Virus genome (UHGV): UHGV-1377764 | DNA from: a virus | Strand: one strand, 5' to 3' | DNA length: 43,062 nt | In this document: positions 940 to 42,651 of the stretch, in pieces | How positions within the stretch are numbered: position 1 is the stretch's first letter | Layout of the letters: each line of letters begins with the position of its first letter | Notes under the pieces: generated by a model | What the model was told of the DNA's origin: nothing | What the model saw: only the letters and a program-made list of their open reading frames with translations | Databases searched by the model: none | Translations under genes and position numbers: made by a program

Positions 940-981
940 TTATTTATCCTCCTCTTATTTATGTACCAAGTATAGCATGAG

Positions 982-2271
982 TCAGCTATACTTGTCAACA
1001 CTTTCAATCATTTCATTTGTAAAATCTTTTCCATTTGTGACTGTTTCAAAAATCTTTTTCTCTATAGGTGTATCAGGCACAATATGGTAATACAATGGAG
1101 TTTTCTCTTGACCATGTCTGTCAGTACGTCCTTTTGCTTGTAAATACTCTGTAGAGCTTAGAGGGATGCTGTTGAAAACTGTCACGTTACTAATCACAAA
1201 GTCGTTTATCCCAGTTGAAGCGGATTTATATTGTGCTAGTACAACTCCATTTTCATTTTGTTTGAAGTTATTTAATTCCTTTATATTACCGTTATACACC
1301 CCATAGGGTCTTTTTAGTTTGTCTAGTAGCATTCTTAGCATTAAATACTCTGCCTTGTAATTATAGAAGATTACTACACGTTCGTTATTGTGTGTTTCAA
1401 GTATAGCTTCCAAACGTTCAAACGGCTCTTTTGATACTGGTTTAAGTACTCCTTCAAGAAAACCATGGCTTACTTGTCTGAGTCTGTTAAATAGATTACT
1501 AGCATTATCTAATTCAACAATATTACCATAGTCATCTTTGTAGATACGTTGTTTTTTCAACTTGTTGTACATTGCTGGTTTCTTAGTTGTGTAAACATAA
1601 TCTTGTGGTAAATAGCCTTTATCACGCTTATAGTTCACACTTGCTTGGTCAATCATTTGTTGAAGTAAATGTTCATTTTGATAACCCACAATATCCATGA
1701 ACCTCATTGAACCCATTTGTCTCATTTGTTTGATAATAAATAGTTGTTCAAACTCTTTCTTAGGCTTTCTAAAGACGTTTGCAATGTATAGTTGTGAGTA
1801 CCAGTTCTCCAGTTTTCCATTACTGATAGGCGTTGCTGTGCATAAATACGTGTATTTTGCTTTCTTACTAAGCTGCATGACAAACTTGGTAACTTTGGAT
1901 TTACTCACTCCCACTTTATGTGATTCGTCAATGATAATGAACGTGTCTTTGTCTACCCATTTTAGTAGTTCAGTTAAGCGCCAAGAGCTTTCAAAACTAA
2001 TTGCAATATTATCTACTGTTTCTAACAACTCTTTATTTTTCTTTGTGCCTTTGTTGAGTGCTGTGATATTAAGATTAAACGCATGTCCATCTTCCACAAA
2101 ATCTAGCACTTTAGGAGCTAAACAGATTACTAATAGTTTAGTACACTCACTTTTTACATATGAGCCTATACTCATATATGACTTTCCAGTTCCAACGTCT
2201 GACAGGTTGAGTGGTTTGTCCTTAAAGTGTTCAATAGCTTCTTGCTGATAGTCAAATAGTTTCACACCCAT
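982..2271 (-). CDS. SNF2-family DEAD/DEAH-box helicase
   Basis: 429 aa; Walker A GTGKS, DEAH-like box IIIDESHK, motif VI QAKGRTDRHGQ. Confidence 0.75.
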   Translation of the reverse strand: MGVKLFDYQQEAIEHFKDKPLNLSDVGTGKSYMSIGSYVKSECTKLLVICLAPKVLDFVEDGHAFNLNITALNKGTKKNKELLETVDNIAISFESSWRLTELLKWVDKDTFIIIDESHKVGVSKSKVTKFVMQLSKKAKYTYLCTATPISNGKLENWYSQLYIANVFRKPKKEFEQLFIIKQMRQMGSMRFMDIVGYQNEHLLQQMIDQASVNYKRDKGYLPQDYVYTTKKPAMYNKLKKQRIYKDDYGNIVELDNASNLFNRLRQVSHGFLEGVLKPVSKEPFERLEAILETHNNERVVIFYNYKAEYLMLRMLLDKLKRPYGVYNGNIKELNNFKQNENGVVLAQYKSASTGINDFVISNVTVFNSIPLSSTEYLQAKGRTDRHGQEKTPLYYHIVPDTPIEKKIFETVTNGKDFTNEMIESVDKYS

Positions 2272-2377
2272 TTTTCTAACTCCTTTTTCAACTCAAATAA
2301 TTTATGCCACATCTCCATATTCTGAGTAATGTTGTAATGGTATTTCATTTTCAAGCGTATATAGTAATAAAATAGTT

Positions 2378-2653
2378 TCATTTAATTTTCTCCACTTCCG
2401 TCATCACATCTCCAACTCTATCAAACGAAAAGACCACGCGACCTGGTTTCTGATCGTAATCTGTGATATATTTTATTCTAATGATTATCATAGTGTTAGT
2501 TACGCGATTTTTATCACTTTCAATTCTAGCATGTTTCAAACAAACATATTGTCCTACGTGAAAATTTTTATTTCTCTTTTCTCTTATCTCAAACGTTTTA
2601 TCCCCAGCAAGTATAGGTAATAGATATTTTTCTTTAATATTCAACGTTAACAT
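2378..2653 (-). CDS. ASCH/PUA-like domain protein
   Basis: ORF 2378..2671 trimmed to ATG (MLTLNIKEK) 10 nt after GGGAGG; sequence resembles ASCH domain. Confidence 0.45.
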   Translation of the reverse strand: MLTLNIKEKYLLPILAGDKTFEIREKRNKNFHVGQYVCLKHARIESDKNRVTNTMIIIRIKYITDYDQKPGRVVFSFDRVGDVMTEVEKIK

Positions 2654-2929
2654 TATTTTACAGCCTCCCATTTATACTGTATTTTACATATTAATAGTCA
2701 ATTAGTTCAATCATCGTGTGGTTCCCAAGTCCATATTATTATAAATACTGCCAGAAGTATCAATGCTGGTAACCCCACAAAACCTACGCCTAATATTAAT
2801 ATAATTATATTTTCAATCACGTTATAGCCTCCCATTTATATCGTATTTTTACGAAATGCATATATTCTTTAGTTGCTGCATATACTGATACTTGTTCTAT
2901 ATCTACTATTCTTGCTTCCATGATCCAAC

Positions 2930-3127
2930 TCATACTTCAAAAACCTCCTTGATATCTTGACAAGGTACTTTTAAGTTATTAATGGCATAGTTGATAGCTT
3001 CTACAATGTTCATTGCTGGTATATTTAGTTCGTGAATTGTTGTATCAATATATTGAAAGCTTGGGTTACTAGCATATACTTTTTCTCGTTTTTCTTCTTC
3101 ATAAATAATGCAATACTCTTTAATCAT
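2930..3127 (-). CDS. hypothetical protein
   Basis: ORF 2930..3196 trimmed to internal ATG (MIKEYCII) preceded by GGAGAAATTGAGT; avoids 77-nt overlap with VRR-NUC gene. Confidence 0.4.
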   Translation of the reverse strand: MIKEYCIIYEEEKREKVYASNPSFQYIDTTIHELNIPAMNIVEAINYAINNLKVPCQDIKEVFEV

Positions 3128-3470
3128 ACTCAATTTCTCCAATCTTAATTTCTGGCAACTCTGGTTGTTTGTATTGTCGTTCAATTCCATTGTCAATGCA
3201 AGATAATAAAACCATGAGTTCTTGAAGCGTGTCTCGTAGAATCAGCCCAAACCCTCCAGCGTCACGTACTTTTTGTAAGTAACTGATTTGTAAAGGATCT
3301 GGCTGATACTTACCTACCTTCAATTCTAAACTAATCCAATAACCTTTATAGCAGCACTCTACATCAGAACGCCCAACTTTGTCAAACATGTTGGCTGTGT
3401 TGACGTTAACTAGCGCACCTTTTTCTTTCAAATATTTAACTACTTGTTTACTGAACTGACTTTCTTTCAT
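3120..3470 (-). CDS. VRR-NUC domain nuclease
   Basis: 116 aa; PD-(D/E)xK-like core GRSDVECCYKGYWISLELK typical of VRR-NUC; sits downstream of SNF2 helicase as in many Gram-positive phages. Confidence 0.65.
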   Translation of the reverse strand: MKESQFSKQVVKYLKEKGALVNVNTANMFDKVGRSDVECCYKGYWISLELKVGKYQPDPLQISYLQKVRDAGGFGLILRDTLQELMVLLSCIDNGIERQYKQPELPEIKIGEIEYD

Positions 3471-3678
3471 GAATTTTACTCAATCCCTTCTTTTTACCTA
3501 AAACCTGATCTTCACAAGTTACTAATACATCATCAATTGTCAAATTGTTTTCTTTCATTAGTTGCAACAATCCACCATATGCAGCCCACAAGAATTTCTC
3601 TTCTTTTTCTCCAGTATTTGGCATTACTTCTGGTGCTAGTTCATCGCAGATTTCATCCCATTCTTTAAGTGTTAACAT
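3448..3678 (-). CDS. hypothetical protein
   Basis: ORF trimmed to MLTLKEWDE start after GGGAGG RBS. Confidence 0.4.
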   Translation of the reverse strand: MLTLKEWDEICDELAPEVMPNTGEKEEKFLWAAYGGLLQLMKENNLTIDDVLVTCEDQVLGKKKGLSKIHERKSVQ

Positions 3679-3893
3679 TATTCTTCCTCCCAATTCATAA
3701 TATGAGTTGTAATAGCGTCTTCTAAATAGCGCTTCACACGTTGTGCCTCTTTACGTGTTAGTGTTACAATGGCACAATCTTCTTCATCATCTGTTAATGT
3801 AATAAAAATACTATTATAATTATCATATGTTGCAACTCGTACTCGCTCATTAGTTTCTGTAGATAAATATTTTTCATAATTCAATTTTTCCAT
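3678..3893 (-). CDS. hypothetical protein
   Basis: ORF 3678..3965 trimmed to ATG (MEKLNYEKY) 5 nt after stop of upstream gene. Confidence 0.4.
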   Translation of the reverse strand: MEKLNYEKYLSTETNERVRVATYDNYNSIFITLTDDEEDCAIVTLTRKEAQRVKRYLEDAITTHIMNWEEE

Positions 3894-3898
3894 TTTGT

Positions 3899-4186
3899 TT
3901 AACCCCCAGTTATCATAAATACTAGAAAAGATATCACAATAAGAGAAAAAGAAATTACTATCCAATTTAAATATCTTGCTAGTGTTAACTCACGTTCTAA
4001 TTCGGTTATTCTGCTAGAAACTGGTGTAGCTTTAATTTCCGTAAAATGATAATAAATACTATCTATTTCGTGTGACCAGTCTTCCATTGCTTTCTCAATG
4101 GCATCCTGTTTGGTAGTTGCTATTACAGTATGACGATATTTGTTTTCATCTGACATTATGCCAGTTACTATATATTGTTGTTTCAT
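3899..4186 (-). CDS. hypothetical membrane-anchored protein
   Basis: 95 aa; C-terminal hydrophobic helix WIVISFSLIVISFLVFMI. Confidence 0.45.
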   Translation of the reverse strand: MKQQYIVTGIMSDENKYRHTVIATTKQDAIEKAMEDWSHEIDSIYYHFTEIKATPVSSRITELERELTLARYLNWIVISFSLIVISFLVFMITGG

Positions 4187-4543
4187 TACTCGTCCTCCTC
4201 TATATCTATCTCAACATCTCTGCCTTCTAAAATGTGTTGAGTATTAATGCCTTTTGTTTTCAATTTATGCATCTTACAACACCTTCACAATTCTAATTTG
4301 ATTGTTTGCATATCCTCTTTTGTTGTAGTAATTACATAATTTATTCAAACTATATAAATCTGTAGGGATATCATACATACCCAACTCCCACTCACCATCA
4401 GTTAATACTTCCATAGCATAAATATGATTTTTGTCTTTAAATCCAGTATGCATCTTAATATCCTCCTTCTTCTAACCAGTGAATAAGTACTCCAGCTCCG
4501 TAAATTACTGCTCCAATAAATAATAGCCCCATCATCATGAATG

Positions 4544-4777
4544 TCATTTTGTTTCCTCCTCTTTATATAGTTCAGTGTTGATAATATATACTGACTGAAT
4601 TAAAAAGTCACGTGTATCCTCTAACCTGTTTATAAGGTTGTTTACCCCAATACTTTTAAAATACTCTATCGTTCTACTTATGTCATTTATTTTACCTTCT
4701 AAGATACTCTTATGCTCAATTAATTCTTCATGTGTCATTTTAAGTCCTCCCTTATCTCTATGAATTAATAATACCAT
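4544..4777 (-). CDS. hypothetical protein
   Basis: 77 aa ORF, RBS AAGGGAGG. Confidence 0.45.
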   Translation of the reverse strand: MVLLIHRDKGGLKMTHEELIEHKSILEGKINDISRTIEYFKSIGVNNLINRLEDTRDFLIQSVYIINTELYKEEETK

Positions 4778-4789
4778 GATATAAAAAGA

Positions 4790-4822
4790 AAGTCAACTGC
4801 TTTAGTCAACTTTCTTTCAAAA
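4790..4822 (-). terminator. stem-loop (9-bp perfect stem AAAGAAAGT/ACTTTCTTT) followed by U-rich tract on minus-strand RNA; internal attenuator/terminator in early operon
   Basis: Read directly: aaagaaagtcaactgctttagtcaactttcttt; minus-strand transcript continues UUUUAUAU. Confidence 0.4.
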
Positions 4823-4825
4823 ATA

Positions 4826-5044
4826 TTAAACTTTTTCTGAGGTGGTGATTGACACAATGTTGTTCACAGTTAGAAGTACCTCGTATTTATATGTTCCCAT
4901 GCCAATTAATTCTTTTTTATGTTGAATATAGATTGATTCTTCTCCCAACTCTATTGCACGTTTAAATAGAGTAATTAGCTCTCTATCTGTTTCTACCAAA
5001 AATGGTTCTGTTGAATTGGTTGTGTAAATACTATATTTTTTCAT
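4826..5044 (-). CDS. hypothetical protein
   Basis: 72 aa ORF. Confidence 0.4.
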   Translation of the reverse strand: MKKYSIYTTNSTEPFLVETDRELITLFKRAIELGEESIYIQHKKELIGMGTYKYEVLLTVNNIVSITTSEKV

Positions 5045-5056
5045 GTTTATGGCCTC

Positions 5057-6643
5057 CTATTGTACATCATTGAAAATGTTTACATACTCTGTTCCTGCTA
5101 GTGCGTTCATCAAATATGGTTTAATTGATTCGTTATCTCCATTGCGTGCGATTTTTAGACCAGTGAGCACACGTGCTTTACTTGTACGTTTTTCTTCAAA
5201 CCCTTGCTTCAGCAGCAATTCTTTCATGGTACGCCAGTTCATTGATTTGTTTATATTGTTCTCTTTTGTGTACACATTAAAGATATTCTTCAATAACGTT
5301 AGGTTAACAGTACCTTCTGCATCTTCCACAATCACAGGTACTTCACTCAAAAACTCTTTAGATGGATCATTTGATTCAATATAAGCTTTTTTGAACGCAA
5401 TCATATCTGCTGTTTCTGTGAATGGGTTTTCACCATTTGTACCAGCGTCTAAAATCTTTTTGAATTGCTGAATACAGAACCATGCAAATTTACCCAGCTG
5501 CTCTTTTGACTCACGTTCCTCACGTTGTTTGTTAAACTCATTAATGCGTTCACGTGCTTCTGGTGTGTCTAAGTTTGTGTTAAAATTTAAAATCAAAATA
5601 CGTCTATACCATCCATTGGTGCGGTCATTAAAAGCTGGTAGTTCATTCATTGAAAACATCAACTTCGCATAGTTGGTAAAGCTAAATGCGTCCTTCCCCT
5701 TTTTCTCAGCATGAACGGCGTCAAGACCTCCTGAAAGCTTTTTCAGTGTTTCAGTACCTTTCACAAAATTGGCACTAGAATCAGCTTCAAAGTTCAATAA
5801 TTTATGGTGTAATGAAGCTTTGTCAAAACGATTGTTTTTATCTGCTAAGCTGTCTAGACCAACTGCTGAGCTGTTTTTGAAGCCAATTAATTTATTCATG
5901 ATAAAGCCACCCACATAAGATTTACCATTTGAACCATTACCTAAGAGGTATAATATTGATTGATATTTGTACTCTCTATAATACATATAACCAATATACT
6001 CATATAATGTCTGTGCTTGATCTTTCAGTAGATAATCAATCCATTGTTTAGCCAATAATTCATCTGTTTCATCTGTCTTAATTAATGGATATGGTAATTG
6101 CAGTGTGTGGTAATCTTCTAACCTGGTCTCACGTATATCATTGGTTTTAAAGTCATATGTCCCATTCTCAAACGCAATAATATTTGGATTAGGATTGTCA
6201 CCTAAGGGTGCATGTTCACCACGTGTCATGGAGCGATTAGCTAACTCAGGTGCTAGTTTCTTCATTTCTTTACGTATTTCATTCCCAAATTCTGGATTTC
6301 TGAATTGTGGTGTAAATTTTGGTGCTAAAATGTTCTCAAAGTACCAATCTGAATATTTGTAACTACCTAGATTTACTTCAGACCAGATACGTGTGTCTGC
6401 ATTGTACACATATGGAGCGTTTAAGTTAGGGTGTGCATACACATAGGCTAACTGATTAAATTTATCAATAAATAATTCTTGTTGGATTTCAAACTTTGGC
6501 TGTGTGCCGTCTTTACCTCCGTAGTACATTCGTCCTAGTTCTGAATTGAAGTCCACAAATTCCTCACTTGGAAAGTGTTTATTTGAAACAGGTAATAACT
6601 CTTCAACAGATGCTGAATAGTCTATTTTCGTTAATTCATTCAT
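5057..6643 (-). CDS. phage primase-helicase, D5/P4 (VirE-like) family with SF3 helicase domain
   Basis: 528 aa; Walker A LLGNGSNGKS, motif C FSMNELP, conserved WYRRILILNF; leader/promoter cassette at 6644-6705. Confidence 0.7.
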   Translation of the reverse strand: MNELTKIDYSASVEELLPVSNKHFPSEEFVDFNSELGRMYYGGKDGTQPKFEIQQELFIDKFNQLAYVYAHPNLNAPYVYNADTRIWSEVNLGSYKYSDWYFENILAPKFTPQFRNPEFGNEIRKEMKKLAPELANRSMTRGEHAPLGDNPNPNIIAFENGTYDFKTNDIRETRLEDYHTLQLPYPLIKTDETDELLAKQWIDYLLKDQAQTLYEYIGYMYYREYKYQSILYLLGNGSNGKSYVGGFIMNKLIGFKNSSAVGLDSLADKNNRFDKASLHHKLLNFEADSSANFVKGTETLKKLSGGLDAVHAEKKGKDAFSFTNYAKLMFSMNELPAFNDRTNGWYRRILILNFNTNLDTPEARERINEFNKQREERESKEQLGKFAWFCIQQFKKILDAGTNGENPFTETADMIAFKKAYIESNDPSKEFLSEVPVIVEDAEGTVNLTLLKNIFNVYTKENNINKSMNWRTMKELLLKQGFEEKRTSKARVLTGLKIARNGDNESIKPYLMNALAGTEYVNIFNDVQ

Positions 6644-6733
6644 TCCATTAAGTCCTCCCTCATATCTTATGCACTAAGTATAGCACAAACTTTTCATTTG
6701 TGCTATACCTTTTATCTAAAAATATTGATTAAT

Positions 6734-6898
6734 TTATTCCACTGAGTCTTTTACATCTAATTGGGTACCACCTAACAGTATGACAATAGTATATTCCCAC
6801 GCTTTACTGTGATAGAATGCTGCAATGTGATTGATGTTTACATATACTGTAGTTTCATCAATTCTTGTTAATGTGATTAGTTCGTTCATTTTATTCAT
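6734..6898 (-). CDS. hypothetical small protein (54 aa)
   Basis: Translated by hand: MNKMNELITLTRIDETTVYVNINHIAAFYHSKAWEYTIVILLGGTQLDVKDSVE; not in ORF track (<60 aa). Confidence 0.35.
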   Translation of the reverse strand: MNKMNELITLTRIDETTVYVNINHIAAFYHSKAWEYTIVILLGGTQLDVKDSVE

Positions 6899-6906
6899 TT
6901 TGACAC

Positions 6907-7083
6907 CTACCAATTCACTTCAAATTCTAAAACTTGGTCTTTTTGAATATATACAATACTACCAATCGGTTTATGCTCTAATATTAGATAGTCATCAGTA
7001 ATTTTATACTGATTCACATCTGTGTATAACATTGTTTCTATACCTTCACCAGCGTTGTATTTGGTTACTGCAATTGTAAACAT
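6907..7083 (-). CDS. hypothetical small protein (58 aa)
   Basis: Translated by hand: MFTIAVTKYNAGEGIETMLYTDVNQYKITDDYLILEHKPIGSIVYIQKDQVLEFEVNW; RBS AAAGGATGA. Confidence 0.35.
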   Translation of the reverse strand: MFTIAVTKYNAGEGIETMLYTDVNQYKITDDYLILEHKPIGSIVYIQKDQVLEFEVNW

Positions 7084-7085
7084 TA

Positions 7086-7496
7086 TTATATCATCCTTTC
7101 AATAAATTCATCCAATTCGTACTTTGCTACTTCTTTCTTTGCTAACTTCAAGTCAAGCTCTTTCTCTGCGAACTCCAAAGCTTGTTGTAAATCTATATAC
7201 TCTTTTAGTTGATAAACTGTTAGTTTGTTTAGGTCTAGTGATTTTTCTTTTTCATCTGGTAGTTCGTGCCTTGAAAACCAGTCGTAGTTGTTAAAGCTAG
7301 GCGTCTCTTTTAGTTTAAATTGACAGATATCGTACTTCAAAGAATCAAGGTACCAGCTATCACCATCATCATCAACTAAGCACAGTTTGCCATGATTGGT
7401 TGATACTGCTTTATACTCCTTTCCTCTCGTCCACCATGGTGTATCTGACTTTGTACAAATATAGGTTTGTCCTTCTTTTAAATGTAGTTTGTTCAT
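7086..7496 (-). CDS. hypothetical protein, N-terminal domain paralogous to adjacent gene
   Basis: ORF trimmed to MNKLHLKEGQTYIC start after AAAGGAGGAAAATAATA; N-terminal 50 aa ~55% identical to 7499..7696 product. Confidence 0.5.
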   Translation of the reverse strand: MNKLHLKEGQTYICTKSDTPWWTRGKEYKAVSTNHGKLCLVDDDGDSWYLDSLKYDICQFKLKETPSFNNYDWFSRHELPDEKEKSLDLNKLTVYQLKEYIDLQQALEFAEKELDLKLAKKEVAKYELDEFIERMI

Positions 7497-7498
7497 TA

Positions 7499-7696
7499 TT
7501 ATTTTCCTCCTTTTATTTTGTAAAAATATCCTTCTATTGGTTGAGGATTGAAGCACTTATCACCGTCATCATCTACTAGTGCTGGACTTCTGTATTTGTT
7601 CAATACAACCTCATATTCTTTACCTACTGTCCACCATCTATATTTTGTGTCTGTACAAATATATGTTTGTCCTTCTTTTAAATCTAAGTTGTTCAT
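7499..7696 (-). CDS. hypothetical protein (paralog of N-terminal domain of 7086..7496)
   Basis: 65 aa, MNNLDLKEGQTYICTD...VDDDGD shared motif; identical RBS context ttattattttcctcc. Confidence 0.5.
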   Translation of the reverse strand: MNNLDLKEGQTYICTDTKYRWWTVGKEYEVVLNKYRSPALVDDDGDKCFNPQPIEGYFYKIKGGK

Positions 7697-8607: not shown

Positions 8608-8618
8608 GTTTCTTCCTC

Positions 8619-33727: not shown

Positions 33728-36007
33728 TTAATCAATATAATTTTTAACTTCTGGAAATTCTTTCATTTGACTATGTGCTTGTTCAATCCGTTCTTTCCAG
33801 CTAGTACCAAACCATAGTACTAGCAGGTCTTCCACTTGGTTTATATAGTACTCTTTGTCAATATCATCAATAGTTATCCATCCTTCACCAATTGCTTCAT
33901 TGTCAATGGCATAGTACTCAGGCGCATTAGGCAAGCCTTTAGTGTAAGAATCATCACCAATAATTGTAGTACCTTCCTCTTCAACAACAGCTCCACGTTT
34001 TACTTTGAATATTTCAACAGATTTGTTAGGGTCTTTTATTGCAAATGTACGATTCACTTTTTGTGCTTTTCGTTCATTACCATAAACATCACGTACTACA
34101 GTATCGTCAAAAGTCCATCCAGTTTTGGTAATCATTTGGAATTGACGTAGTTCATCAGATTCATTGATAAACTCTTTGTAATCTTTACCACTAACAACAT
34201 AATTAATGAACGCATTTGAAACAATCGCTTTAGAGACTTTCAATCCCTTTGTTAGACCAATTGCTCCTTTGACTTTAACTTTACCTTTAGCAGTCACAGC
34301 TAAATAATTATTGACGTCCTTCTGGAAAATAGCTATAAATGGATCATCATCTAATGTGTACCCTGTTCGTTTCATCCAATCATCTGCGATATCATCAATG
34401 GCTTTTTCATCTTCTGCACTAAATGGAATGTAATAGTGAGCATCTGTGTTTGATTGAATAATGGTGGCATGGTCTTCAATCTTTTCTAGTAAATCCCACA
34501 TTGCCATCTGACCAGTAATACACACTAATAACCGCATGCGTGGGTCATACAATTTGTTAAACTCAGCTCCCATTGCACCATATTTAGTATTTAGAGGTAG
34601 TTTATAACCATCAATTAACAACTCAGTTGGAATCTGAATGCCTTTAATTTCAGTAAACTCTTTATTGGAATACTTGGCTTCCATACGTTCATCTAATAGC
34701 ATTTGATAAATATGACGCTTGTCTTCTGGAATGTTTCTTGATAAGTAGTCAAATAAAACCATTGTATTTGGATAAAGTGAACCAACGTCGCGTGCGTGGA
34801 AGTTACCTACATGAATAAATGACTCTTTAGCACCATGTATACCACCTACCCCTAAAACCTCTGTGACGTCTCTACGTGGTACATCTAATGAAATACTGGC
34901 ATGTCCTTTATCATTAGCTTCAAATTCCTCTGTCATAAACGCCTGACGAATGGTCTCTGACTCAATTTCAAATCCTTCTGGTAGTTCATACTTATCTAAC
35001 TCATCACCTCTATCAGGTGTTTTCTCAGCCCCTAATAGTTCAGCTGTTAAATTTGCGTTAGTCATTGATAGTGCCATTTTATCTAAACCAAAGTATAAGG
35101 CAATTGCAGCTTTAGCTACTAACATACCTATGTTTTGTTCAAAGCGTTTTTCCGTAGCTAACACGTCATTTTTACAATATAGTTCGTTCAATACTTGTTC
35201 TTCTTCAGTTAGTTCTCTATCTAAATCAAAGTCTACTTCAGTTTCTTTAATATTAATACCCATGAAAGCACTATGTTCTTTCAAACTAAACCCTCTATTG
35301 TCTTGATACAAATCCATTCCAAAAAGGGGTGTTTTCTTAGTATCAAACATTTTATATGCTAATGCTCTATCATCACTTTCAATGATTGCTTTTGACACAT
35401 GAAACGGGTTTTTACCCTGTAAATATGCACGCATGACATTGGAGTCATATGAGTGTGAGTTATAACCTACAAACAATGAATCTCTATTCGCAAGATAGAA
35501 CTTGCGTAAAGCGTCTAAATCATTATGAATGACTGTCCATTCTTTAGTGAAGTAATCTCTGAAAACAAATAAATTATCTTTTTTAAATACTTCAATATCA
35601 TAAATATAAATTGTTTGTTTTGTTAGTGCCTCGTTTGGTTTATCAGGTAAGTTTTCAACAACCCCTCCTTCTTGGTTAATGGTTACATTTGGAAAACCAT
35701 TGTTGTATTTTAGAGTAATATTCAACTCCTGACCTACTTGGATATCTTCCCATGTTTTCCAATCTTGTTTACGAAACTTCATGATATAAAATGTAGCATC
35801 ACGCCCATCGTTTGTGCTACGTACTTTAATTTCCTTCATCTCTTTACCTTTAGCGCTTAATCGTTCCTCAGCTTTAAGCACTACAACTTGATGAACTCCT
35901 TCCGTCATTGGATCAAAGCTTTTTCCATTACCTGCTAATGCAGAAAATATTTCCAATAGTTTAGATGCTAGTTTTTCAGCACCTTGAAATTCTGCTATGT
36001 TTTTCAT
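33728..36007 (-). CDS. family B DNA polymerase with 3'-5' exonuclease domain
   Basis: 759 aa; Exo I YIYDIE, Exo II YNSHSYD, Exo III YCKND; Pol motif A DVGSLYPN, motif B KLPLNTKYG, motif C-like SNTDAHY. Confidence 0.65.
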   Translation of the reverse strand: MKNIAEFQGAEKLASKLLEIFSALAGNGKSFDPMTEGVHQVVVLKAEERLSAKGKEMKEIKVRSTNDGRDATFYIMKFRKQDWKTWEDIQVGQELNITLKYNNGFPNVTINQEGGVVENLPDKPNEALTKQTIYIYDIEVFKKDNLFVFRDYFTKEWTVIHNDLDALRKFYLANRDSLFVGYNSHSYDSNVMRAYLQGKNPFHVSKAIIESDDRALAYKMFDTKKTPLFGMDLYQDNRGFSLKEHSAFMGINIKETEVDFDLDRELTEEEQVLNELYCKNDVLATEKRFEQNIGMLVAKAAIALYFGLDKMALSMTNANLTAELLGAEKTPDRGDELDKYELPEGFEIESETIRQAFMTEEFEANDKGHASISLDVPRRDVTEVLGVGGIHGAKESFIHVGNFHARDVGSLYPNTMVLFDYLSRNIPEDKRHIYQMLLDERMEAKYSNKEFTEIKGIQIPTELLIDGYKLPLNTKYGAMGAEFNKLYDPRMRLLVCITGQMAMWDLLEKIEDHATIIQSNTDAHYYIPFSAEDEKAIDDIADDWMKRTGYTLDDDPFIAIFQKDVNNYLAVTAKGKVKVKGAIGLTKGLKVSKAIVSNAFINYVVSGKDYKEFINESDELRQFQMITKTGWTFDDTVVRDVYGNERKAQKVNRTFAIKDPNKSVEIFKVKRGAVVEEEGTTIIGDDSYTKGLPNAPEYYAIDNEAIGEGWITIDDIDKEYYINQVEDLLVLWFGTSWKERIEQAHSQMKEFPEVKNYID

Positions 36008-36044
36008 ATATTTACTTCCTCTCTCGTTTGAATATACTATTATA

Positions 36045-36773
36045 TTATCTTACTTTGAATAGTTTTTCAACTCTTTTTTTATTTTTTATATCTCCTTGAC
36101 TGCTAATTCCAACCTTAACCTCTTTGCTCCAGATACATTTAAATTTATCTTCTGGCATTGCATATTCACTAATTAGTACAGTATTGTTTTTAGCTAACTC
36201 TATAGCCCATTTATCAAACTCTTTGTATGGAAAGTTTCCAGTTGAATAAGATAATGTTTTTCTATATGGTGGGTCTAGATAAAAGACACAGTTTTTATAA
36301 TCAGTTGGGTTATAATCTAAAAATGACTTACATTCAAAAGTAACACCTTGTAAGTTTGGTGCTTGCTGTTGTAAGTTTAGTATTGCTTCATTTGGATAGT
36401 CACGTGGTGTGATACCATCAGCTTTATAACCTCTAGCATATCCACCAAAGTATTTGGCACTAAATGACGCACAAAACCAAACTAAACCAATATACCAATC
36501 TTCGTAATAATCCTTGTTGTTTTTTACATGAGTGTACTCATCTTCAGATATTGTTTTTGGCAAAAAGTTAGAATTATTTTTATTATAGTTGTGTAATGCG
36601 ATTAATTCTTTGTGTAAATCACTACCAATTTTATTATCATGTTTAATTTTATCAATCATATTAGCCCCACCTACAAATGGTTCTATATATGCTACTGTGT
36701 CATCTGTAATATAACTTTGAATGATTGGTGCTAATTCTTTACTAAGTCTGTTTTTACTTCCTACGTATTGCAT
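36045..36773 (-). CDS. Dam-like N6-adenine DNA methyltransferase, copy 1 (intact)
   Basis: 242 aa; motif I EPFVGGANM, motif IV DPPY; 5' UTR (tattcaaacgagagaggaagtaa) duplicated in front of the polymerase gene. Confidence 0.7.
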   Translation of the reverse strand: MQYVGSKNRLSKELAPIIQSYITDDTVAYIEPFVGGANMIDKIKHDNKIGSDLHKELIALHNYNKNNSNFLPKTISEDEYTHVKNNKDYYEDWYIGLVWFCASFSAKYFGGYARGYKADGITPRDYPNEAILNLQQQAPNLQGVTFECKSFLDYNPTDYKNCVFYLDPPYRKTLSYSTGNFPYKEFDKWAIELAKNNTVLISEYAMPEDKFKCIWSKEVKVGISSQGDIKNKKRVEKLFKVR

Positions 36774-36875
36774 ATAGTTACTTCCTCTCTCGTTTGAATA
36801 TAATATAGTATATCACATCTATTATTAGTACACAAGTACAAAGTATAAACTCTATGAAGCTCTCAATTGTGTATC

Positions 36876-37082
36876 TCATTGGAAGAGTCTAAACTGTCTT
36901 GGATGCCCTTGTGTTTGCATATATAATACATTATCTAACTTATAAACAGCAATAGTATTCTTCTTGTTTGCAATCATCATTTGCGTTGGATCAATCTTTA
37001 TATACACCTCATTAAAATGTCTATTGATAATGACACCATCTTCATCTTTGACTGTTAAAATTAAGTTGTCTACTAACATCAT
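36876..37082 (-). CDS. hypothetical protein
   Basis: 68 aa ORF. Confidence 0.4.
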   Translation of the reverse strand: MMLVDNLILTVKDEDGVIINRHFNEVYIKIDPTQMMIANKKNTIAVYKLDNVLYMQTQGHPRQFRLFQ

Positions 37083-37096
37083 TTTAAATTTCCTCC

Positions 37097-37429
37097 TTAT
37101 TTGAAATCATCTTTATTCATCAATGCACCAATAATATTGAATAGTGAAATAATTGTAGGAATACCTGTCCAACAGAACACTAGTTTAATAAGTCCTTTTA
37201 CTGGTTTTCCAACGTAGAAATCATGGGCACCAATTCCTCCTAAGAATAGTGCTAGCAATAAATAAACAGTCAAACTTGGTTTATTAGAATTCTCTTTCAT
37301 GCTTTTAAGTTGTGTTAATTGTTCCTTTAAAATTTCGTTTTGTAATTGCTCGTTGGTCATTTCATTTTCCTCCTCTTGTGTGTGGTTCATTTTCTTCAAC
37401 GTTTCTAATACTGGGTTTTGTTTAGCCAT
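37097..37429 (-). CDS. TM2-domain membrane protein
   Basis: 110 aa; LLLALFLGGIGAHDFYVGKPVKGLIKL matches TM2 domain signature. Confidence 0.55.
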   Translation of the reverse strand: MAKQNPVLETLKKMNHTQEEENEMTNEQLQNEILKEQLTQLKSMKENSNKPSLTVYLLLALFLGGIGAHDFYVGKPVKGLIKLVFCWTGIPTIISLFNIIGALMNKDDFK

Positions 37430-37460
37430 TTTAATCTTCCTCTCTTTATCTTATGAATTA

Positions 37461-37489
37461 AGTTTACCATGCAATGCTTACCTTGTCAA
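37461..37489 (-). promoter_or_regulatory. early promoter TTGACA-N17-TAAACT with conserved leader
   Basis: Read directly. Confidence 0.55.
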
Positions 37490-37682
37490 TGTGTTTAACT
37501 GCTAATTTTAAATCTTTTTCGTCAAACCCTTCGGTTGAGCCTTTGTATAACTTAACCATGTACTCGTATCCATCTACAGGTTTGTACATCTTGTACAGCA
37601 ATACACCTTTATCGCCTTTGTTACCAACACCGTTTTGATTATCTCGTTTTAATTCAACTACGTTTCCAATATTCATTGTCAT
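37464..37682 (-). CDS. hypothetical protein
   Basis: 72 aa ORF. Confidence 0.4.
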   Translation of the reverse strand: MTMNIGNVVELKRDNQNGVGNKGDKGVLLYKMYKPVDGYEYMVKLYKGSTEGFDEKDLKLAVKHIDKVSIAW

Positions 37683-37697
37683 TATTTATTCTCTCCT

Positions 37698-38222
37698 TTA
37701 TTTATATTTGAAGGTATATCCTCCAGTTTGTTTACGTCTACCTTTTAAAACGTCTGTAATATGTGCTTGATTTAACCCTAATTGTCTAGCGCATTCACTA
37801 ATTCCATAGAATTCTCTAAATTCACCAGTTTTTATATTAGTTGCAATGATTGGAATACTTTGCGTTTTAGCCATTCTTTCAGTACGTGTTCCATGATTGA
37901 GGTTCTCTTTTCTAGTAGACCATTCTAGATTGTTAACATTGTTGTTAGTCTTATTTTCGTCTATGTGATTAACCTCTGGTTTATTTTCTGGGTTTGGGAT
38001 AAACGCTTGGGCTACTACACGGTGGGTTTTATGATTTTTATGCTTACCGTTTTTACATAAAGTAACTAGTAAATAACCCTGTGGGTGTCTATGTGGTTTT
38101 AAAACTCTACCTTTACGTATTCTACCTAACTTATCTGTAGTATCAAAACTCTTAACTCTTCCTAAATTACTCACCTGATATAATCCTTCAAAGCCTTCAA
38201 TATCTTTCCAAATTTCTTTCAT
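37698..38222 (-). CDS. free-standing HNH homing endonuclease (NUMOD4 + HNH_3 + C-terminal NUMOD1/IENR DNA-binding)
   Basis: 174 aa; WKDIEGFEGLYQVSNLGRVKS, VNHIDENKTNNNVNNLEWST, GISECARQLGLNQAHITDVLKG; own promoter TTGACT-N17-TAAAAT at 38253-38281. Confidence 0.75.
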   Translation of the reverse strand: MKEIWKDIEGFEGLYQVSNLGRVKSFDTTDKLGRIRKGRVLKPHRHPQGYLLVTLCKNGKHKNHKTHRVVAQAFIPNPENKPEVNHIDENKTNNNVNNLEWSTRKENLNHGTRTERMAKTQSIPIIATNIKTGEFREFYGISECARQLGLNQAHITDVLKGRRKQTGGYTFKYK

Positions 38223-38311
38223 TCTATTTCCTCCTCTTTATCTTACAAGTTAATTTTAGCATGATAAAAGAAAAGAGTCAACCGTTTAGGCTAACTCTTT
38301 TTTAATTTATT

Positions 38312-39004
38312 TTAGAATGGCAACTCTTCTTCTGTCACTACCTCTTTCTGATCGTCAGGATCAAGAGGTTGTGCTTCTAACCATCCATACGGTGATTTAG
38401 GGTCTAACATGTTTTTATTAACGGTGCAATCCACAACCATTCCAATCGCCATTTCTGCAGTATCCCATGTTACATTTACATCTTCAAACAATTCATTGAA
38501 GCGTGCTTTTGCTTTTGCAAGTTTTGCTTGATTTGGAATAAACTTGTTTAGTTTCTCAATATAAACTCCTGAGTTGAAGTTGAATGAGTAGTATTTACCT
38601 TCGTGTTCTACCACAACGGCACGTCCTTTGGCACTGTCTTTGATTTCAACAATTGGTACTTGCTTCAAGCGTTTTAGTGAGATCAGTGGTTTCTCAATCT
38701 TTTTAAAGGAACTTCCTTCTTCAAAGTAGGCTTTACCTGTTTCTTCGTCTACGTACATTTCTAATTCTTTATCCTCAAGGTTATAAAACGACCCACCTAA
38801 CATTTCTAAGGCTTTAGCTAATCGTTCGTTACCTTTTGTATCTTCGTCTGTGAAGTCACTCCATGTTTTAGATTCTTTATCATATGTTTTTTTGAATACT
38901 GCAGCTTCATAGATAGCGCTGTAATCTTCGTTGGCTACCTGTAATTTCACACTAATATCATCTTCCTCTGCACTAACAATAATTACTTTTTTCAATTCTG
39001 ACAT
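38312..39004 (-). CDS. putative ssDNA-binding/annealing protein with T7 gp2.5-like acidic C-terminal tail ending in Phe
   Basis: 230 aa ending DPDDQKEVVTEEELPF; no canonical OB-fold SSB elsewhere in window. Confidence 0.3.
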   Translation of the reverse strand: MSELKKVIIVSAEEDDISVKLQVANEDYSAIYEAAVFKKTYDKESKTWSDFTDEDTKGNERLAKALEMLGGSFYNLEDKELEMYVDEETGKAYFEEGSSFKKIEKPLISLKRLKQVPIVEIKDSAKGRAVVVEHEGKYYSFNFNSGVYIEKLNKFIPNQAKLAKAKARFNELFEDVNVTWDTAEMAIGMVVDCTVNKNMLDPKSPYGWLEAQPLDPDDQKEVVTEEELPF

Positions 39005-39067
39005 TTTAATTCCTCCAATTAAGTTGTTTTATTCTCGCTTACAAAATCTATTATATCATATATTCCC

Positions 39068-39286
39068 TTACTTGTGTAAGTTATTTACACATGATTCAAG
39101 TATTTCGTCAACGGTTGCCTGATTAAGTTTAATTAGACCCAATAATACAATTATACTGCTAGTGTTATACTCTTCTAGGTCACTATGATTCAGGCCTGTA
39201 TATCTAACAATATTTTCCTCAAACTCCACTGCTTTTGAATCATACTCTTCTACCAATTTAATCAGTTCCTCAGTTGTTAAATTCAT
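39068..39286 (-). CDS. hypothetical protein
   Basis: 72 aa ORF. Confidence 0.4.
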   Translation of the reverse strand: MNLTTEELIKLVEEYDSKAVEFEENIVRYTGLNHSDLEEYNTSSIIVLLGLIKLNQATVDEILESCVNNLHK

Positions 39287-40092
39287 TTTACCACATCATA
39301 CTCAATTTTAAGTTTCTTCAAGTCTTCTTTCTTAACCTTAATTGTCACATATTCAACTGGTTTAGGAGCTTCCTGTTTTTGCTCGTTTCCAGTAATAATG
39401 ATAATGTCAGGTACTTTGGTTTCTTTTACTCTAGCCTGTTCTTTTTCAAGACGTTCTTTCTCCGCAATCATGTTCGCATAGTCAATGATAGCTTCTTGCA
39501 TATTAAAGCCATTTTTAGAGTAAGCAATCAAAATCGCTGAACGATCATCTTTGTCAGGGTAGGTTTGTTTCAATTGTTCGTAATCATTCTTAAAGGTGTC
39601 AAAATACGAAACTACTGCTTCACGTATCTTTTTGGCACTCGTAGCCTTGTTAGTTATAAGAGTTGGGTTCTTTGCTAAAAACTTATCAAAAGTAAGCCAT
39701 TGTGGAGCGTTGTATGACTTCTGATATTTCTTAAATAAGTCTTTGATTTGTAACTTACGCTCATCTTGTTCTCGTAGTGTAATCTGTTTAATTTGGGCAT
39801 TAATATGCTCTTCTCCTTCACCCAGGACTTCCTTTAATAATTTAATCTTTTCATTCAATTCATCATAAGGGGTCATGATTTCACGCTTAACCGCTAATCT
39901 TTCTGAATCTAATTTTTTAATTTCTTTACGAATTTCAGCAAGAAGTTTTTTATTCTCTATAATATTTTCCTCATTTACTTCTTGCTCTTTCATTCGTTCA
40001 GCTAACCTCCTTACGTCTTCAAGTGTTTTTTCGTAACCAATGAACTGTATTTCATGTTTACCTGTAGCTTGTATTGATAGTTCAAATGCCAT
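39283..40092 (-). CDS. DUF1351-like coiled-coil protein of phage replication/recombination modules
   Basis: ORF trimmed to MAFELSIQ start 8 nt after AGAGGA; long Lys/Glu coiled coil. Confidence 0.4.
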   Translation of the reverse strand: MAFELSIQATGKHEIQFIGYEKTLEDVRRLAERMKEQEVNEENIIENKKLLAEIRKEIKKLDSERLAVKREIMTPYDELNEKIKLLKEVLGEGEEHINAQIKQITLREQDERKLQIKDLFKKYQKSYNAPQWLTFDKFLAKNPTLITNKATSAKKIREAVVSYFDTFKNDYEQLKQTYPDKDDRSAILIAYSKNGFNMQEAIIDYANMIAEKERLEKEQARVKETKVPDIIIITGNEQKQEAPKPVEYVTIKVKKEDLKKLKIEYDVVK

Positions 40093-40249
40093 GAGTTTCA
40101 TCCTCTAACTTGAGACGTTTGTATTCTACAGCAAAGATTTCATCAATCGTGTAATTTACTTTGAATAGCCATTTGTATTTTTCAATTACATCAAACAACT
40201 GGTTTTCAGTGTAGCCATAGTCTAATTTTAAAAGTGTTTTATAGTTCAT
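40082..40249 (-). CDS. hypothetical small protein (55 aa)
   Basis: Hand translation MNYKTLLKLDYGYTENQLFDVIEKYKWLFKVNYTIDEIFAVEYKRLKLEDETHGI; ATGA coupling with upstream gene. Confidence 0.35.
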   Translation of the reverse strand: MNYKTLLKLDYGYTENQLFDVIEKYKWLFKVNYTIDEIFAVEYKRLKLEDETHGI

Positions 40250-40470
40250 TTTCTATCACCTTCCAATTCAATAGTCATTCCTTCATCTCCATATCCTGGT
40301 GTTTGTGTAATCCATGTAACCACTCGTTCTCCATACTTACCAACAAGCTCATCTATTGTATATCTAGGTGTGTCATAATAAAACCTCTTATCATTTCCAA
40401 ATATAACTTCTATTAACCCATTATCCTCTAGTAGATGTGCTACATCATTCACTGTAAGTTTCTTAGTCAT
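40246..40470 (-). CDS. hypothetical protein
   Basis: 74 aa ORF. Confidence 0.4.
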   Translation of the reverse strand: MTKKLTVNDVAHLLEDNGLIEVIFGNDKRFYYDTPRYTIDELVGKYGERVVTWITQTPGYGDEGMTIELEGDRK

Positions 40471-40471
40471 T

Positions 40472-40699
40472 TTATAACTCCTCCTTCAGTAACTCTAAAT
40501 CTTCATCACTCAAGCGGTCAATCAGTTCAATATCCTCTTCACGTACTTCTTCAAAGCATGCTGCAAAATCTCCTGTTTCAACCAAGACAAGAATGTTTCC
40601 AAACTTGTCTACATGTTGTACTGTACCATCGTCGCCCTGTGCTGCGTGCATTCCATAATTGTTTGTGAATCTAACTAAATCTCCATATTGATATTTCAT
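40472..40699 (-). CDS. hypothetical acidic protein
   Basis: 75 aa ORF, acidic C-terminus. Confidence 0.4.
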   Translation of the reverse strand: MKYQYGDLVRFTNNYGMHAAQGDDGTVQHVDKFGNILVLVETGDFAACFEEVREEDIELIDRLSDEDLELLKEEL

Positions 40700-40701
40700 T
40701 A

Positions 40702-40974
40702 TTATTCCTCCTCAAATCTAATGCCAACATAATTTTCAACGCCGTTAGCTTCGTGGCGTTTTGCGTAACTACTAGCATCTACTTCTAAACGCTCACCTGT
40801 TGCAATATTAATCAGTTTAAAAGTGTATGGTTTTTCTGATAAATCGATAAGTGTAGCTGATTTACCCCAACCAATCTTTACTTCTTTGGTAGGTTTAACT
40901 TCCATACCTATTATGAAATACTTATTCCGTCCAGTCTTACCACTCTCACATAATCCATTTCCAATATATCTCAT
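40702..40974 (-). CDS. hypothetical protein
   Basis: 90 aa ORF. Confidence 0.4.
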   Translation of the reverse strand: MRYIGNGLCESGKTGRNKYFIIGMEVKPTKEVKIGWGKSATLIDLSEKPYTFKLINIATGERLEVDASSYAKRHEANGVENYVGIRFEEE

Positions 40975-41003
40975 TATTATTCCTCCTCTATATATTAACT
41001 ATA

Positions 41004-41759
41004 TCATCTCTTTAAATAATTGTCAACATCTGTTTGAGTAATTTTTCCTTTTTCTAGTCTAATTAATCCTTCAAAACTACGATAACGTTCTGAAATGTGA
41101 AGCTCAACATCTACTGCACCTGGCTTCTTGAATTTAGTAACAAACTCCTCTCTGTCTACAGTACTCAAGTGACGATATGATCCGTTGTTAAAGGTGTCAT
41201 ATCCACTATGAATTTTCATATATTCTGATAACCCAATGACTTTGGGATCATAATTAGCCTCTAAAAGAATAATATCAAGTTTTAACTCATTTGTTAATAG
41301 ATAAGTTTCATAATCTATTAAAGTACTCAAATCAGTGGCATAGATTAAGTTTTGCGAAGGACTCTCTAGGATAAAACCATGTGTTTCTGTGTAGTCTTCA
41401 GCTGCACCATGATAATTTTGAAGTGTTGTAAATTTTACATCTCCAATTTGAAACTGGAAATCATCTTTGAATGTTATGTCTACACTACTAAGTTTGCGTT
41501 TTATTAGTTCATTGTTAACAGTTTCGTTAGATAATATTTTAATGTGTGGAAAGTTTTCTCTAATTTTTTTGTATGTTGTATATACAAGGTGGTCTTGGTG
41601 CTTATGCGTAATAAATACAAATTGTTTATCATATAAATATGGCTCAATGTATTTGTATGGCTTTCCAATATCAATTAGGAAACCAACGTTCTCATAATAA
41701 ATTGAAACACTGTTACCCTTACTCCCTGTGTAATGTACATCAAATTCAAATTCTGACAT
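41004..41759 (-). CDS. metallo-beta-lactamase-fold hydrolase
   Basis: 251 aa; HxHxDH motif ITHKHQDH. Confidence 0.65.
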   Translation of the reverse strand: MSEFEFDVHYTGSKGNSVSIYYENVGFLIDIGKPYKYIEPYLYDKQFVFITHKHQDHLVYTTYKKIRENFPHIKILSNETVNNELIKRKLSSVDITFKDDFQFQIGDVKFTTLQNYHGAAEDYTETHGFILESPSQNLIYATDLSTLIDYETYLLTNELKLDIILLEANYDPKVIGLSEYMKIHSGYDTFNNGSYRHLSTVDREEFVTKFKKPGAVDVELHISERYRSFEGLIRLEKGKITQTDVDNYLKR

Positions 41760-41773
41760 TTGCTTGCCTCCAA

Positions 41774-42244
41774 CTATACTAATTTATTTCTGTCTGCGTA
41801 TTTTGCTCCTTCTAATTCCCAAAGCTCTCTACCTAATCTATTGGCTTCTTTCCAATTTTGTTGCTCACATGCATCTCCAATGGCTACAATTAACGCATGC
41901 CGTTTTGGCTCTACTTTCTTTCTGAATGGACGTGCCACACGTTCTAGTCCTTCTTTTGGATTAATTGCGTAACCAATGTTGGTGTAGTGACTGTTTTGTA
42001 TATTACCATCTTTAAAATATAAATATCCTAAGTTGTGTTCATTTTTAACAAACATTTCTGCTACTAATTGAGAGACGTAGAACTTACGTGACTTCGTATG
42101 TGAACCTTCAAGTACTACATACATTTTTCCATTCTTTGGATCAACTAGTTCAGTTTCGTATCGTTCTTTGTCTAAATGAAACACATGACCTTCATCCGTT
42201 ATGGCATACATATCGTAAGGCTCATTTAATGGTTCAAATCTCAT
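41774..42244 (-). CDS. degenerate HNH_3/NUMOD4-like protein (catalytic His replaced)
   Basis: 156 aa; GKMYVVLEGSHTKSRKFYVSQLVAEMFVKNEHN aligns with GYLLVTLCKNGKHKNHKTHRVVAQAFIPNPEN of 37698..38222 product, but HNH segment reads LYFKDGNIQNSHYTNIGY. Confidence 0.4.
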   Translation of the reverse strand: MRFEPLNEPYDMYAITDEGHVFHLDKERYETELVDPKNGKMYVVLEGSHTKSRKFYVSQLVAEMFVKNEHNLGYLYFKDGNIQNSHYTNIGYAINPKEGLERVARPFRKKVEPKRHALIVAIGDACEQQNWKEANRLGRELWELEGAKYADRNKLV

Positions 42245-42533
42245 TGTGTTTTTCCTCCAGTTTGATTAATTGATCTACATAAACTTTCACTTTTTTCAAG
42301 TCTTGAATTCCATTCTTTTGTTTGTATCTATGTGTATATTTGTATATGTTTGCTTTGTAGAAACCACGTAATTCGTCATAGGTTAATAACTCATCTTCTA
42401 ATACATCAAAGAGTTGTTTTCCTGAACTGGTTTTGTAACGTGTTGTATTTTGTAGTTCTTCAGATTCAATTACACTGCCAGTAATATGTGAACCTTGAAT
42501 TGGGTTACCAATTAAATCTTTAAATGTAGTCAT
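42234..42533 (-). CDS. DUF3310-like phage protein
   Basis: 99 aa; ...YKANIYKYTHRYKQKNGIQDLKKVKVYVDQLI resembles DUF3310 signature; own promoter TTGACA-N17-TATTAT at 42565-42593. Confidence 0.4.
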   Translation of the reverse strand: MTTFKDLIGNPIQGSHITGSVIESEELQNTTRYKTSSGKQLFDVLEDELLTYDELRGFYKANIYKYTHRYKQKNGIQDLKKVKVYVDQLIKLEEKHNEI

Positions 42534-42651
42534 TCTATCAAATCCTCTCTTTGTTTATATATTTATAATATCATATAGTATCTTACTTGTCAACACAAAA
42601 CTTTTAGTTTATGCTATAATAAATTATAGGGATTCCTCCTCCCTCCTCTCG

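Follow-up and report, generated by a model that had tools for sequence, protein, structure and literature searches.

Recurrent promoter-leader cassettes at the heads of predicted early gene groups in an Enterococcus faecium siphophage

The virus genome UHGV-1377764, analysed here in full as a window of 43,062 nt, is a complete-looking Enterococcus faecium siphophage genome of the IME-EFm1/EFm5 group. On its minus strand we find nine copies of a cassette that joins a promoter to a Shine-Dalgarno (SD) sequence and a start codon, and these copies stand at the heads of the leftward replication and early gene groups. They are probably class I early promoters for the host sigma-A RNA polymerase (RNAP), each fused to a minimal ribosome-loading leader, with transcription starts and timing taken from prediction. 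The feature is real, non-random and biologically sensible, if described somewhat too generously in a first-pass annotation of the window, and it belongs to a recognised kind of phage regulatory cassette. What goes beyond routine annotation is the presence, in a siphophage of a Gram-positive host, of a composite resembling the PeSLs of T4-like phages, and of a block from the -10 to the SD that is common to unrelated Enterococcus phages.

Across most of its length the window is 85-92% identical to the IME-EFm1 / IME-EFm5 / BUCT630 group. Leftward (minus-strand) genes occupy 1-9169 and 31998-43062 and include those for replication and nucleotide metabolism as well as small genes of unknown function; the rightward genes (9662-31922) encode packaging, head, tail and lysis. 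Comparisons were made with six related phage genomes, giving seven genomes with the window, and base frequencies were counted over 50 cassette copies drawn from this set.

A conserved block between the -10 and the SD

The cassettes share one layout. After the -35 comes a 17-nt spacer, then the extended -10 TGnTATACT, the sequence TA(A/G)TTCATAAG, an A/G-rich stretch running into GAGGAGG and, 5-9 nt further on, the ATG. The conserved parts are TTGACA, TGnTATACT, the next 11 nt (TARTTCATAAG) and the strong SD. Over the 50 copies, the ten positions that follow the -10 are occupied by T48 A43 R47 T43 T36 C40 A47 T49 A49 A43; an A/G-rich run comes next, and GGAG or GAGG starts 14-18 nt past the -10. 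The first-pass annotation had proposed a near-identical module of about 60 nt. Over that whole length the copies are 54-56% identical and their spacers are unrelated; near-identity does hold for some 30 nt, from the -10 to the SD, in three to four of them (9169, 37429, 38222, 33661).

All seven sites originally listed upstream of their start codons are present on the minus strand, six of them robustly and the one at 42533 weakly. The estimate of at least seven uses can be raised, since a regular expression for the -35 and -10 recovered two further copies (4796-4739 and 41026-40975). An nhmmer profile returns seven window copies with E-values from 3.6e-12 to 2.2e-7, on the minus strand only, and the 19-mer TCATAAGATAAAGAGGAGG alone matches the window three times at up to three mismatches against 0.01 expected.

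Does this likeness exceed what any set of promoters and SD sequences would share? The 11 nt right after the -10 are 62-70% identical between paralogous copies, compared with 27% for random picks (z 13-15), so that the block stands far above random once sequences are anchored on the promoter, as the first-pass annotation had supposed. Searches with leader patterns alone, run genome-wide at up to two or three mismatches, gave counts at chance level; the leader signal arises from its fixed position behind promoters. Common descent of the copies was addressed by clustering the cassettes by spacer and taking pairs across clusters. Between clusters the 11-nt block is 73% identical, similar to the -35 (74%) and the -10 (82%), against 37% for the spacer and 41% for upstream DNA. 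Because this identity is kept where spacers and upstream DNA have diverged to background, the block appears to be under selection and behaves as a promoter element that copying alone would not explain.

The promoters themselves are near consensus in eight of the nine copies, with TTGACA or TTGACT, spacers of 17-18 nt and a TG-extended -10; the copy at 6643 has the extended -10 only. Conversely, the minus-strand intergenic sites that match at least 10 of 12 hexamer positions and carry the TG are all cassettes, except for one promoter of a second class (39078-39050). SD and start codon form the 3' end of the unit in 9/9 copies. Transcription start maps of the host (PMC7724050) place tgnTAtaaT at 96-98% of starts and a canonical -35 at only some 4% of them, and they describe no motif further downstream. 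As host starts seldom have a canonical -35, the cassettes lie at the strong end of the host promoter range. The same module occurs in the six relatives, in 6-8 copies per genome and almost always on the early strand. Together with the intergenic position at the heads of gene groups, these features bear out in silico the proposed identity as promoter plus leader. Records of related phages annotate such sites as predicted promoters, and the literature searched on the genus likewise holds predictions only. By inspection, the copies do not consistently retain a dyad symmetry (CTTA-N5-TAAG) about the start.

Assuming a start 7 nt past the -10, the predicted mRNAs begin with AUAAG, have leaders of 17-27 nt and place the SD at +9 to +11 in eight of nine copies. 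These leaders are predicted to be unstructured, with folding energies of 0 to -5.2 kcal/mol (z >= -0.2). We rejected a riboswitch or other structured leader on account of this weak folding and because no Rfam family matched at gathering score anywhere in the window.

Strong stem-loops that overlap the promoter are a feature of five of the nine copies (9-15 bp, z -2.7 to -5.8) and are missing from the other four. They directly follow the preceding gene, and 38271-38301 alone passes a terminator scan on the correct strand. The palindrome noted earlier in the spacer at 33695-33723 is real and has strong counterparts in four other copies. In the relatives, the stem of the type B hairpin is 100% paired and shows C:G, U:A and U:G at one pair; this covariation is only suggestive, as 75 of 500 shuffles reach it. 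As a separate observation, the hairpin at the primase promoter (6676-6710 in the window, 40257 in relative L002 and 22803 in L005) keeps its stem AGCACAAA/TTTGTGCT, with the loop inverted (TGAAAAG versus CTTTTCA); it looks as if the palindrome had been flipped between phages.

How could such a block work? It may comprise an AT-rich discriminator, a C(-1)A(+1)T start 7 nt past the -10 and the first transcribed bases, and would be retained because it is tuned to the host machinery, namely to start-site choice and to promoter escape at an A start. An SD about 10 nt from the 5' end would allow immediate ribosome loading, and a 5' end covered in this way may resist 5'-dependent decay; we infer such ribosome shielding from RNase J1 in Enterococcus from work on Bacilli (PMC3997798). 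The copies with stem-loops would then be composite units of terminator or attenuator, promoter and SD.

The individual cassettes, all on the minus strand, vary around this theme. The one closest to consensus is also the first leftward promoter (9170-9229), located before a 76-aa open reading frame (ORF; 8939-9169), with neither a stem-loop nor a co-oriented gene upstream. Before the primase-polymerase (prim-pol) gene (196-939), the cassette at 940-998 reads TTGACA-N18-TGCTATACT TGGTACATAAATAAGAGGAGG, and its 10-bp stem-loop (967-994) takes in the -10. The first of the two copies missed by the first-pass annotation (4739-4796) reads TTGACT-N17-TGGTATTAT TAATTCATAGAGATAAGGGAGG and precedes a 64-aa ORF whose true ATG is at 4738, within a longer ORF call (4544-4777); here a 15-bp stem-loop (4784-4818) takes in the -35. 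Upstream of the DNA primase gene (5057-6643), the cassette at 6644-6705 reads TGCTATACT TAGTGCATAAGATATGAGGGAGG, with the -10 included in a 15-bp stem-loop (6676-6710). It was credited with a TTGAC -35, which in fact reads TAGCAC and so departs from consensus; the extended -10 TGCTATACT accompanies it. The cassette at 33662-33723 lies 3' of the DNA polymerase gene and before a disrupted copy of a Dam-like methyltransferase (MTase) gene, and its spacer is itself a 7-9 bp palindrome (33699-33722). At 37430-37489 a cassette precedes a gene for a TM2-domain protein (37097-37429) and carries ACTTAATTCATAAGATAAAGAGAGGAAG, the same text as in Enterococcus Herelleviridae. The cassette at 38223-38301 precedes an inserted gene for an HNH/NUMOD endonuclease (37698-38222); its terminator-like stem-loop of 13 bp (38271-38301) holds the -35, with the T-tract as the spacer. 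The second addition (40975-41026) is weaker and has a short leader, reads TTGACA-N17-TGATATAGT TAATATATAGAGGAGG and stands before a 90-aa ORFan (40702-40974). Finally, the site at 42534-42593 combines a promoter and an SD before a DUF3310 gene (42234-42533). Its TTGACA, TG-extended -10 and SD are as described earlier, whereas the text after the -10 (AAATATATAAAC) differs from the conserved block and the profile misses the site; this promoter is back to back with one of the second class, which its -10 resembles. The genes behind the cassettes at 9169, 4738 and 40974 have no Pfam matches, and other cassettes precede primase, prim-pol and TM2-domain genes.

Gene insertion and cassette exchange

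Homology blocks found by BLAST between the window and the six relatives end at the SD/ATG edge of the cassettes (33671, 38218, 4736, 37427, 42531 and 40966-95), with further breakpoints at 9229, at the -35 of the first promoter, and at 959/977-1004. For cassette-led gene starts a mean of 3.9 relatives have a breakpoint, compared with 2.2 for the others (Mann-Whitney p = 0.012). That these islands of 20-60 bp identity are sites at which genes are inserted, swapped and moved by recombination is partly shown by individual loci.

One such case is the 90-aa ORFan, which matched neither any of 50,697 phage records by tblastn nor a Pfam family. It is inserted between promoter and resident gene and is flanked by an 18-nt direct repeat from SD to ATG (GAGGAGGAATAATAATGA; 40971-40988 and 40696-40713, minus strand); in BUCT630 and DELF1 the promoter of this locus directly precedes the next gene. 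A similar arrangement surrounds the intact MTase gene. The 25-nt leader TATATTCAAACGAGAGAGGAAGTAA stands before the polymerase gene (36012-36036, minus strand) and again before the MTase gene (36778-36802, minus strand), so that the pair flanks the MTase insertion. The two Dam-like (MethyltransfD12) genes of the window are about 80% identical in DNA; 36045-36773(-) is intact and lies before the polymerase gene, and 32706-33661(-), after it, is broken into short ORFs. Relatives carry the gene in one place or the other, and the homology between the two loci begins at the SD. The MTase ORF has changed places between these loci, and the junction falls at the leader. Phage 9184 has an unrelated MTase gene behind a type B cassette at a different locus, where the 60-nt cassette is the sole DNA shared.

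The cassettes themselves are also mobile to some extent. Spacer types recur at non-orthologous loci, with type D at 38281 and 4796, and type B both 3' of the polymerase gene and, in relatives, before prim-pol or MTase genes. The prim-pol promoter is of type F in the window, BUCT630 and KEN21, and of the palindromic type B in IME-EFm1 and DELF1. Since spacer types are common to non-orthologous loci and the types at prim-pol differ, cassettes have been exchanged or converted. This is the part that stands of an earlier suggestion that they spread together with the HNH and MTase genes; for the most part, genes were rather swapped or inserted behind resident cassettes, with breakpoints at the SD/ATG edge. 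The HNH gene behind the cassette at 38281 is an insertion without flanking repeats, and an association with homing endonucleases as a rule was rejected, as only about 3 of some 31 endonuclease genes across the seven genomes follow a cassette. BUCT630 (L001) has an early-type promoter and leader (TGTTATAAT TAATACATAAAACAATGAGGAGG; 17251-17305, minus strand) before an HNH gene inserted in the tail block, the sole cassette-like match within a late operon.

A second promoter class, other phages and competing explanations

Class I promoters (TTGACA ... TATACT TAATTCATAAG) all point leftward. A second class, (A/T)ACACA-N11-TATGNTATAAT (written TATG(A/C/T)TATAAT) and then usually AGA or GAA, is found mostly on the rightward, structural strand, at 9610-9638(+), 11304-11332(+), 19501-19529(+), 20173-20201(+), 39050-39078(-) and 42592-42620(+), and possibly at 16796-16806(+). 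The pattern ATATGATATAATAGA has six matches against 0.6 expected. Sites of both classes are conserved at orthologous positions in all six relatives, and class II probably marks a middle or late class.

The class II promoter at 42592-42620 precedes a candidate small RNA of about 58 nt (42626-42684, plus strand), antisense to the early strand, with a 5' hairpin presenting a UUCCUCC loop, a CCUCUCG linker and an intrinsic terminator (42654-42677; dG -21.1, z -6.0). It matches no Rfam family at threshold. The stems vary among phages (AGGGA/UCCCU, GGAAGU/ACUUCC, AUGCUG/CAGCAU) and the loop (U)UCCUCC is constant; in Bp29 and vB_EfaS-271, the stem is replaced by GGAAGU/ACUUCC and AUGCUG/CAGCAU and the CU-rich anti-SD loop is retained. 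Predicted duplexes of this RNA are stronger with cassette leaders (-16.9 kcal/mol) than with other initiation regions (about -12 kcal/mol; p = 0.002). A control with the plain 16S anti-SD ranks the gene groups in the same way, so the advantage reflects SD strength and not specificity. In its full form the small RNA occurs in one subclade only (19 records), whereas the cassette is far more widespread.

A further set of repeats lies between the divergent gene blocks. The intergenic region 9230-9600 holds nine of the twelve exact TGACAAAA octamers of the window, often as TAGTGACAAAATGAC and in both orientations around an AT-rich core of TATAA repeats, along with a 21-nt inverted repeat (9298-9318 / 9484-9504). 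It resembles an iteron or operator array and may be an origin or a switch region.

Outside the genus, the core 31-mer TATACTTAATTCATAAGATAAAGAGAGGAAG, the variant found at 37429, is 100% identical in Enterococcus Herelleviridae (14 places in phiEF24C-P2, 11 in A155), and 109 records hold it at 99% identity or more. Near-identical copies occur in Saphexavirus and Minhovirus; full cassettes were seen in phiEF24C-P2, one Saphexavirus and one Minhovirus. Closely similar text after the -10 is present in phages of Weissella, Staphylococcus, Lactobacillus, Bacillus and S. thermophilus. Host mimicry was rejected, since searches of Enterococcus chromosomes and plasmids did not turn up the block. Scanned with the exact pattern, species-representative genomes returned 19 matches, none of them in Enterococcus and some four to five promoter-like, in other Firmicutes, and a search of enterococcal plasmids returned noise and one probable phage record. 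Although listed as a plasmid in PLSDB, this record, LR962011.1 (E. faecalis, 40,825 bp), is as large as an Efquatrovirus genome, contains the cassette core and probably represents a phage. A literature search for the motif text gave nothing relevant. VPE25 (L007) was considered as a relative with RNA-seq data and discarded: this 86-kb phage is unrelated, and its first 50 kb, the part compared, contain no class I cassette. It has a repeated promoter of its own, GTTTACA-N15-TTGATATAAT ATAAA, at 9919, 13666, 14774, 19712, 36865, 40802 and 48902 (+), which suggests that family-specific repeats of promoter plus downstream text are common in Enterococcus phages.

What, then, maintains the block? That it recurs in the E. 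coli phage T5 and in numerous phages of Firmicutes speaks for a functional optimum, in line with early promoters adapted to the host machinery. The verbatim identity between phage families goes beyond functional need, which makes it likely that the cassettes have also spread horizontally. Several points weigh against the host-tuned promoter-leader explanation. The 28-31 nt that are verbatim identical between unrelated Enterococcus phage families include positions that vary within the genus, which suggests horizontal transfer or a sequence-specific factor, and a host optimum leaves the absence of the block from host genes unexplained. The +1 positions and leader lengths are themselves predicted, as are the promoters in the literature found on the genus. 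A proper T-tract lies behind just one or two of the stem-loops, so that a terminator role is uncertain for the others, and the enrichment of breakpoints is modest in phages in which gene-boundary breakpoints are common anyway.

The most serious competitor takes discriminator, start and leader as a class-specific target on DNA or RNA, through which a phage or host factor sets the early class off, or keeps it on, at the switch to the second class. Candidates would be an RNAP-binding protein, a DNA-binding protein, an endoribonuclease or the anti-SD small RNA, and the proposal is compatible with early promoters tuned to the host. We hold it to be unlikely, although two clearly distinct promoter classes are conserved in all six relatives, the block is phage-specific in the host sequences searched, and T5 offers a precedent in which a discriminator difference goes with an RNAP-binding protein (PMC7472727). 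The block lacks both a consistent dyad symmetry and an identified binding protein, and it recurs in phage families without obvious common regulator genes, T5 among them. The small-transcript unit, class II-driven with an invariant UUCCUCC loop and covarying stems, and its stronger duplexes with cassette leaders speak for such a target; the mirrored ranking by the 16S anti-SD and the restriction to a subclade speak against it. Improbable in our estimate is the specific form in which the purine-rich early leader is the common target of this class II-made RNA, with its UUCCUCC loop and CCUCUC linker. If true, promoter class on the DNA and leader text on the RNA would jointly time the shut-off of early genes, and a common leader would let co-infecting unrelated Enterococcus phages cross-regulate or exchange genes. 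Mere shared descent, in which one cassette was copied within the genome and among co-infecting Enterococcus phages and the text after the -10 does nothing sequence-specific beyond belonging to a functional promoter and ribosome-binding site, would account for spacer types D and B at non-orthologous loci, the swapped prim-pol promoter, the leader duplications around inserted genes and the identical strings across families. It is very improbable, since the block's identity amid diverged spacers and upstream DNA requires selection, and since common origin is implausible for the very similar text in T5 and phages of other genera. That nothing is present past generic -35, -10 and SD consensus in AT-rich DNA agrees with the chance-level leader-only searches and fits the copy at 42533. 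This is scarcely credible for a set in which positions between -10 and SD are nearly invariant, the promoter-anchored signal lies so far above random, and class II promoters have the same boxes with different downstream text.

If early promoters with ribosome-loading leaders are the right description, the cassettes provide a concrete map of predicted early transcription units for E. faecium phages used in therapy work, for which the literature and records searched hitherto held software-predicted promoters only. A block of about 30 nt from -10 to SD, common to four Enterococcus phage families, is also a ready strong expression signal for Enterococcus engineering and an early-gene marker. It raises the question whether such a block is an optimum for the host machinery, moves horizontally as a cassette or serves as a regulatory target specific to its promoter class.

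Comparison with known regulatory systems

T5 early promoters such as PN25 (AY587007) likewise repeat a block that extends from the -10 over the initial transcribed bases and leads into a purine-rich SD. PN25 carries TATAATAGATTCATAAATTTGAGAGAGGAG, and the T5 record lists it as an early promoter whose stretch from -10 to leader is copy 6 of 'repeat c'. Comparing T5 TATAAT AGATTCATAAATTTGAGAGAGGAG with the consensus here, TATACT TAATTCATAAGATAAAGAGAGGAAG, 17 of 24 positions after the -10 are identical. T5 differs in that it is an unrelated phage of E. coli with a non-consensus -35 and A-rich upstream elements; the likeness is probably a resemblance by convergence rather than shown homology. T5 early promoters share a class-specific discriminator motif, early and late promoters differ mainly there, and a phage protein that binds RNAP affects discriminator contacts (PMC7472727).

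The 5' stabilisers of Bacilli (the SP82 polypurine element, cryIIIA STAB-SD and hbs; PMC3997798) have a polypurine SD no more than some 10 nt from the 5' end, a position that the cassette SD would share if transcription starts 7 nt past the -10. In B. subtilis, transcripts with a ribosome bound at such an SD are stabilised because RNase J1 is blocked, and RppH prefers G at position 2 (PMC3997798); position 2 of the predicted transcripts is U in 49 of 50 copies. Unlike in those systems, the SD of the cassettes is the working ribosome-binding site of the first gene, the stabilising effect is a presumed one, and Enterococcus is not the system reviewed. With morons and other free-standing insertions the phage has in common that single genes (an ORFan, an MTase, an HNH endonuclease) sit between a promoter and a resident gene. 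Its inserts differ in using or duplicating the resident leader and in having no promoter or terminator of their own, with the HNH gene in the tail block of BUCT630 as a possible exception.

PeSLs have been reported, in the literature searched, from T4-like phages, cyanophages and Vibrio phages only. As described by Arbiol et al. 2010 (PMC2839356) and Comeau et al. 2014 (PMC4122927), they are repeated intergenic units in which a strong early promoter of host type is combined with a stem-loop lying between the -35 and -10 or over them, and which close at their 3' edge with SD and start codon. The units described here differ from them in the Gram-positive host and the 43-kb siphophage genome, in number (about 9 copies per genome versus about 50), in having stem-loops at five of nine copies with few T-tracts, and in that several copies precede core replication genes. 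Conserved text in discriminator, start and leader is no described feature of PeSLs, for which mini-circle data exist; the cassettes are known from sequence. PeSLs are concentrated in plastic regions and stand mostly before ORFans; of the nine cassettes, three precede genes without Pfam matches. For both kinds of unit, close relatives have the breakpoints of their indels and replacements at the unit. The idea of composite cassettes of terminator, promoter and SD as recombination points is thereby extended from T4-like phages to a siphophage of a Gram-positive host.

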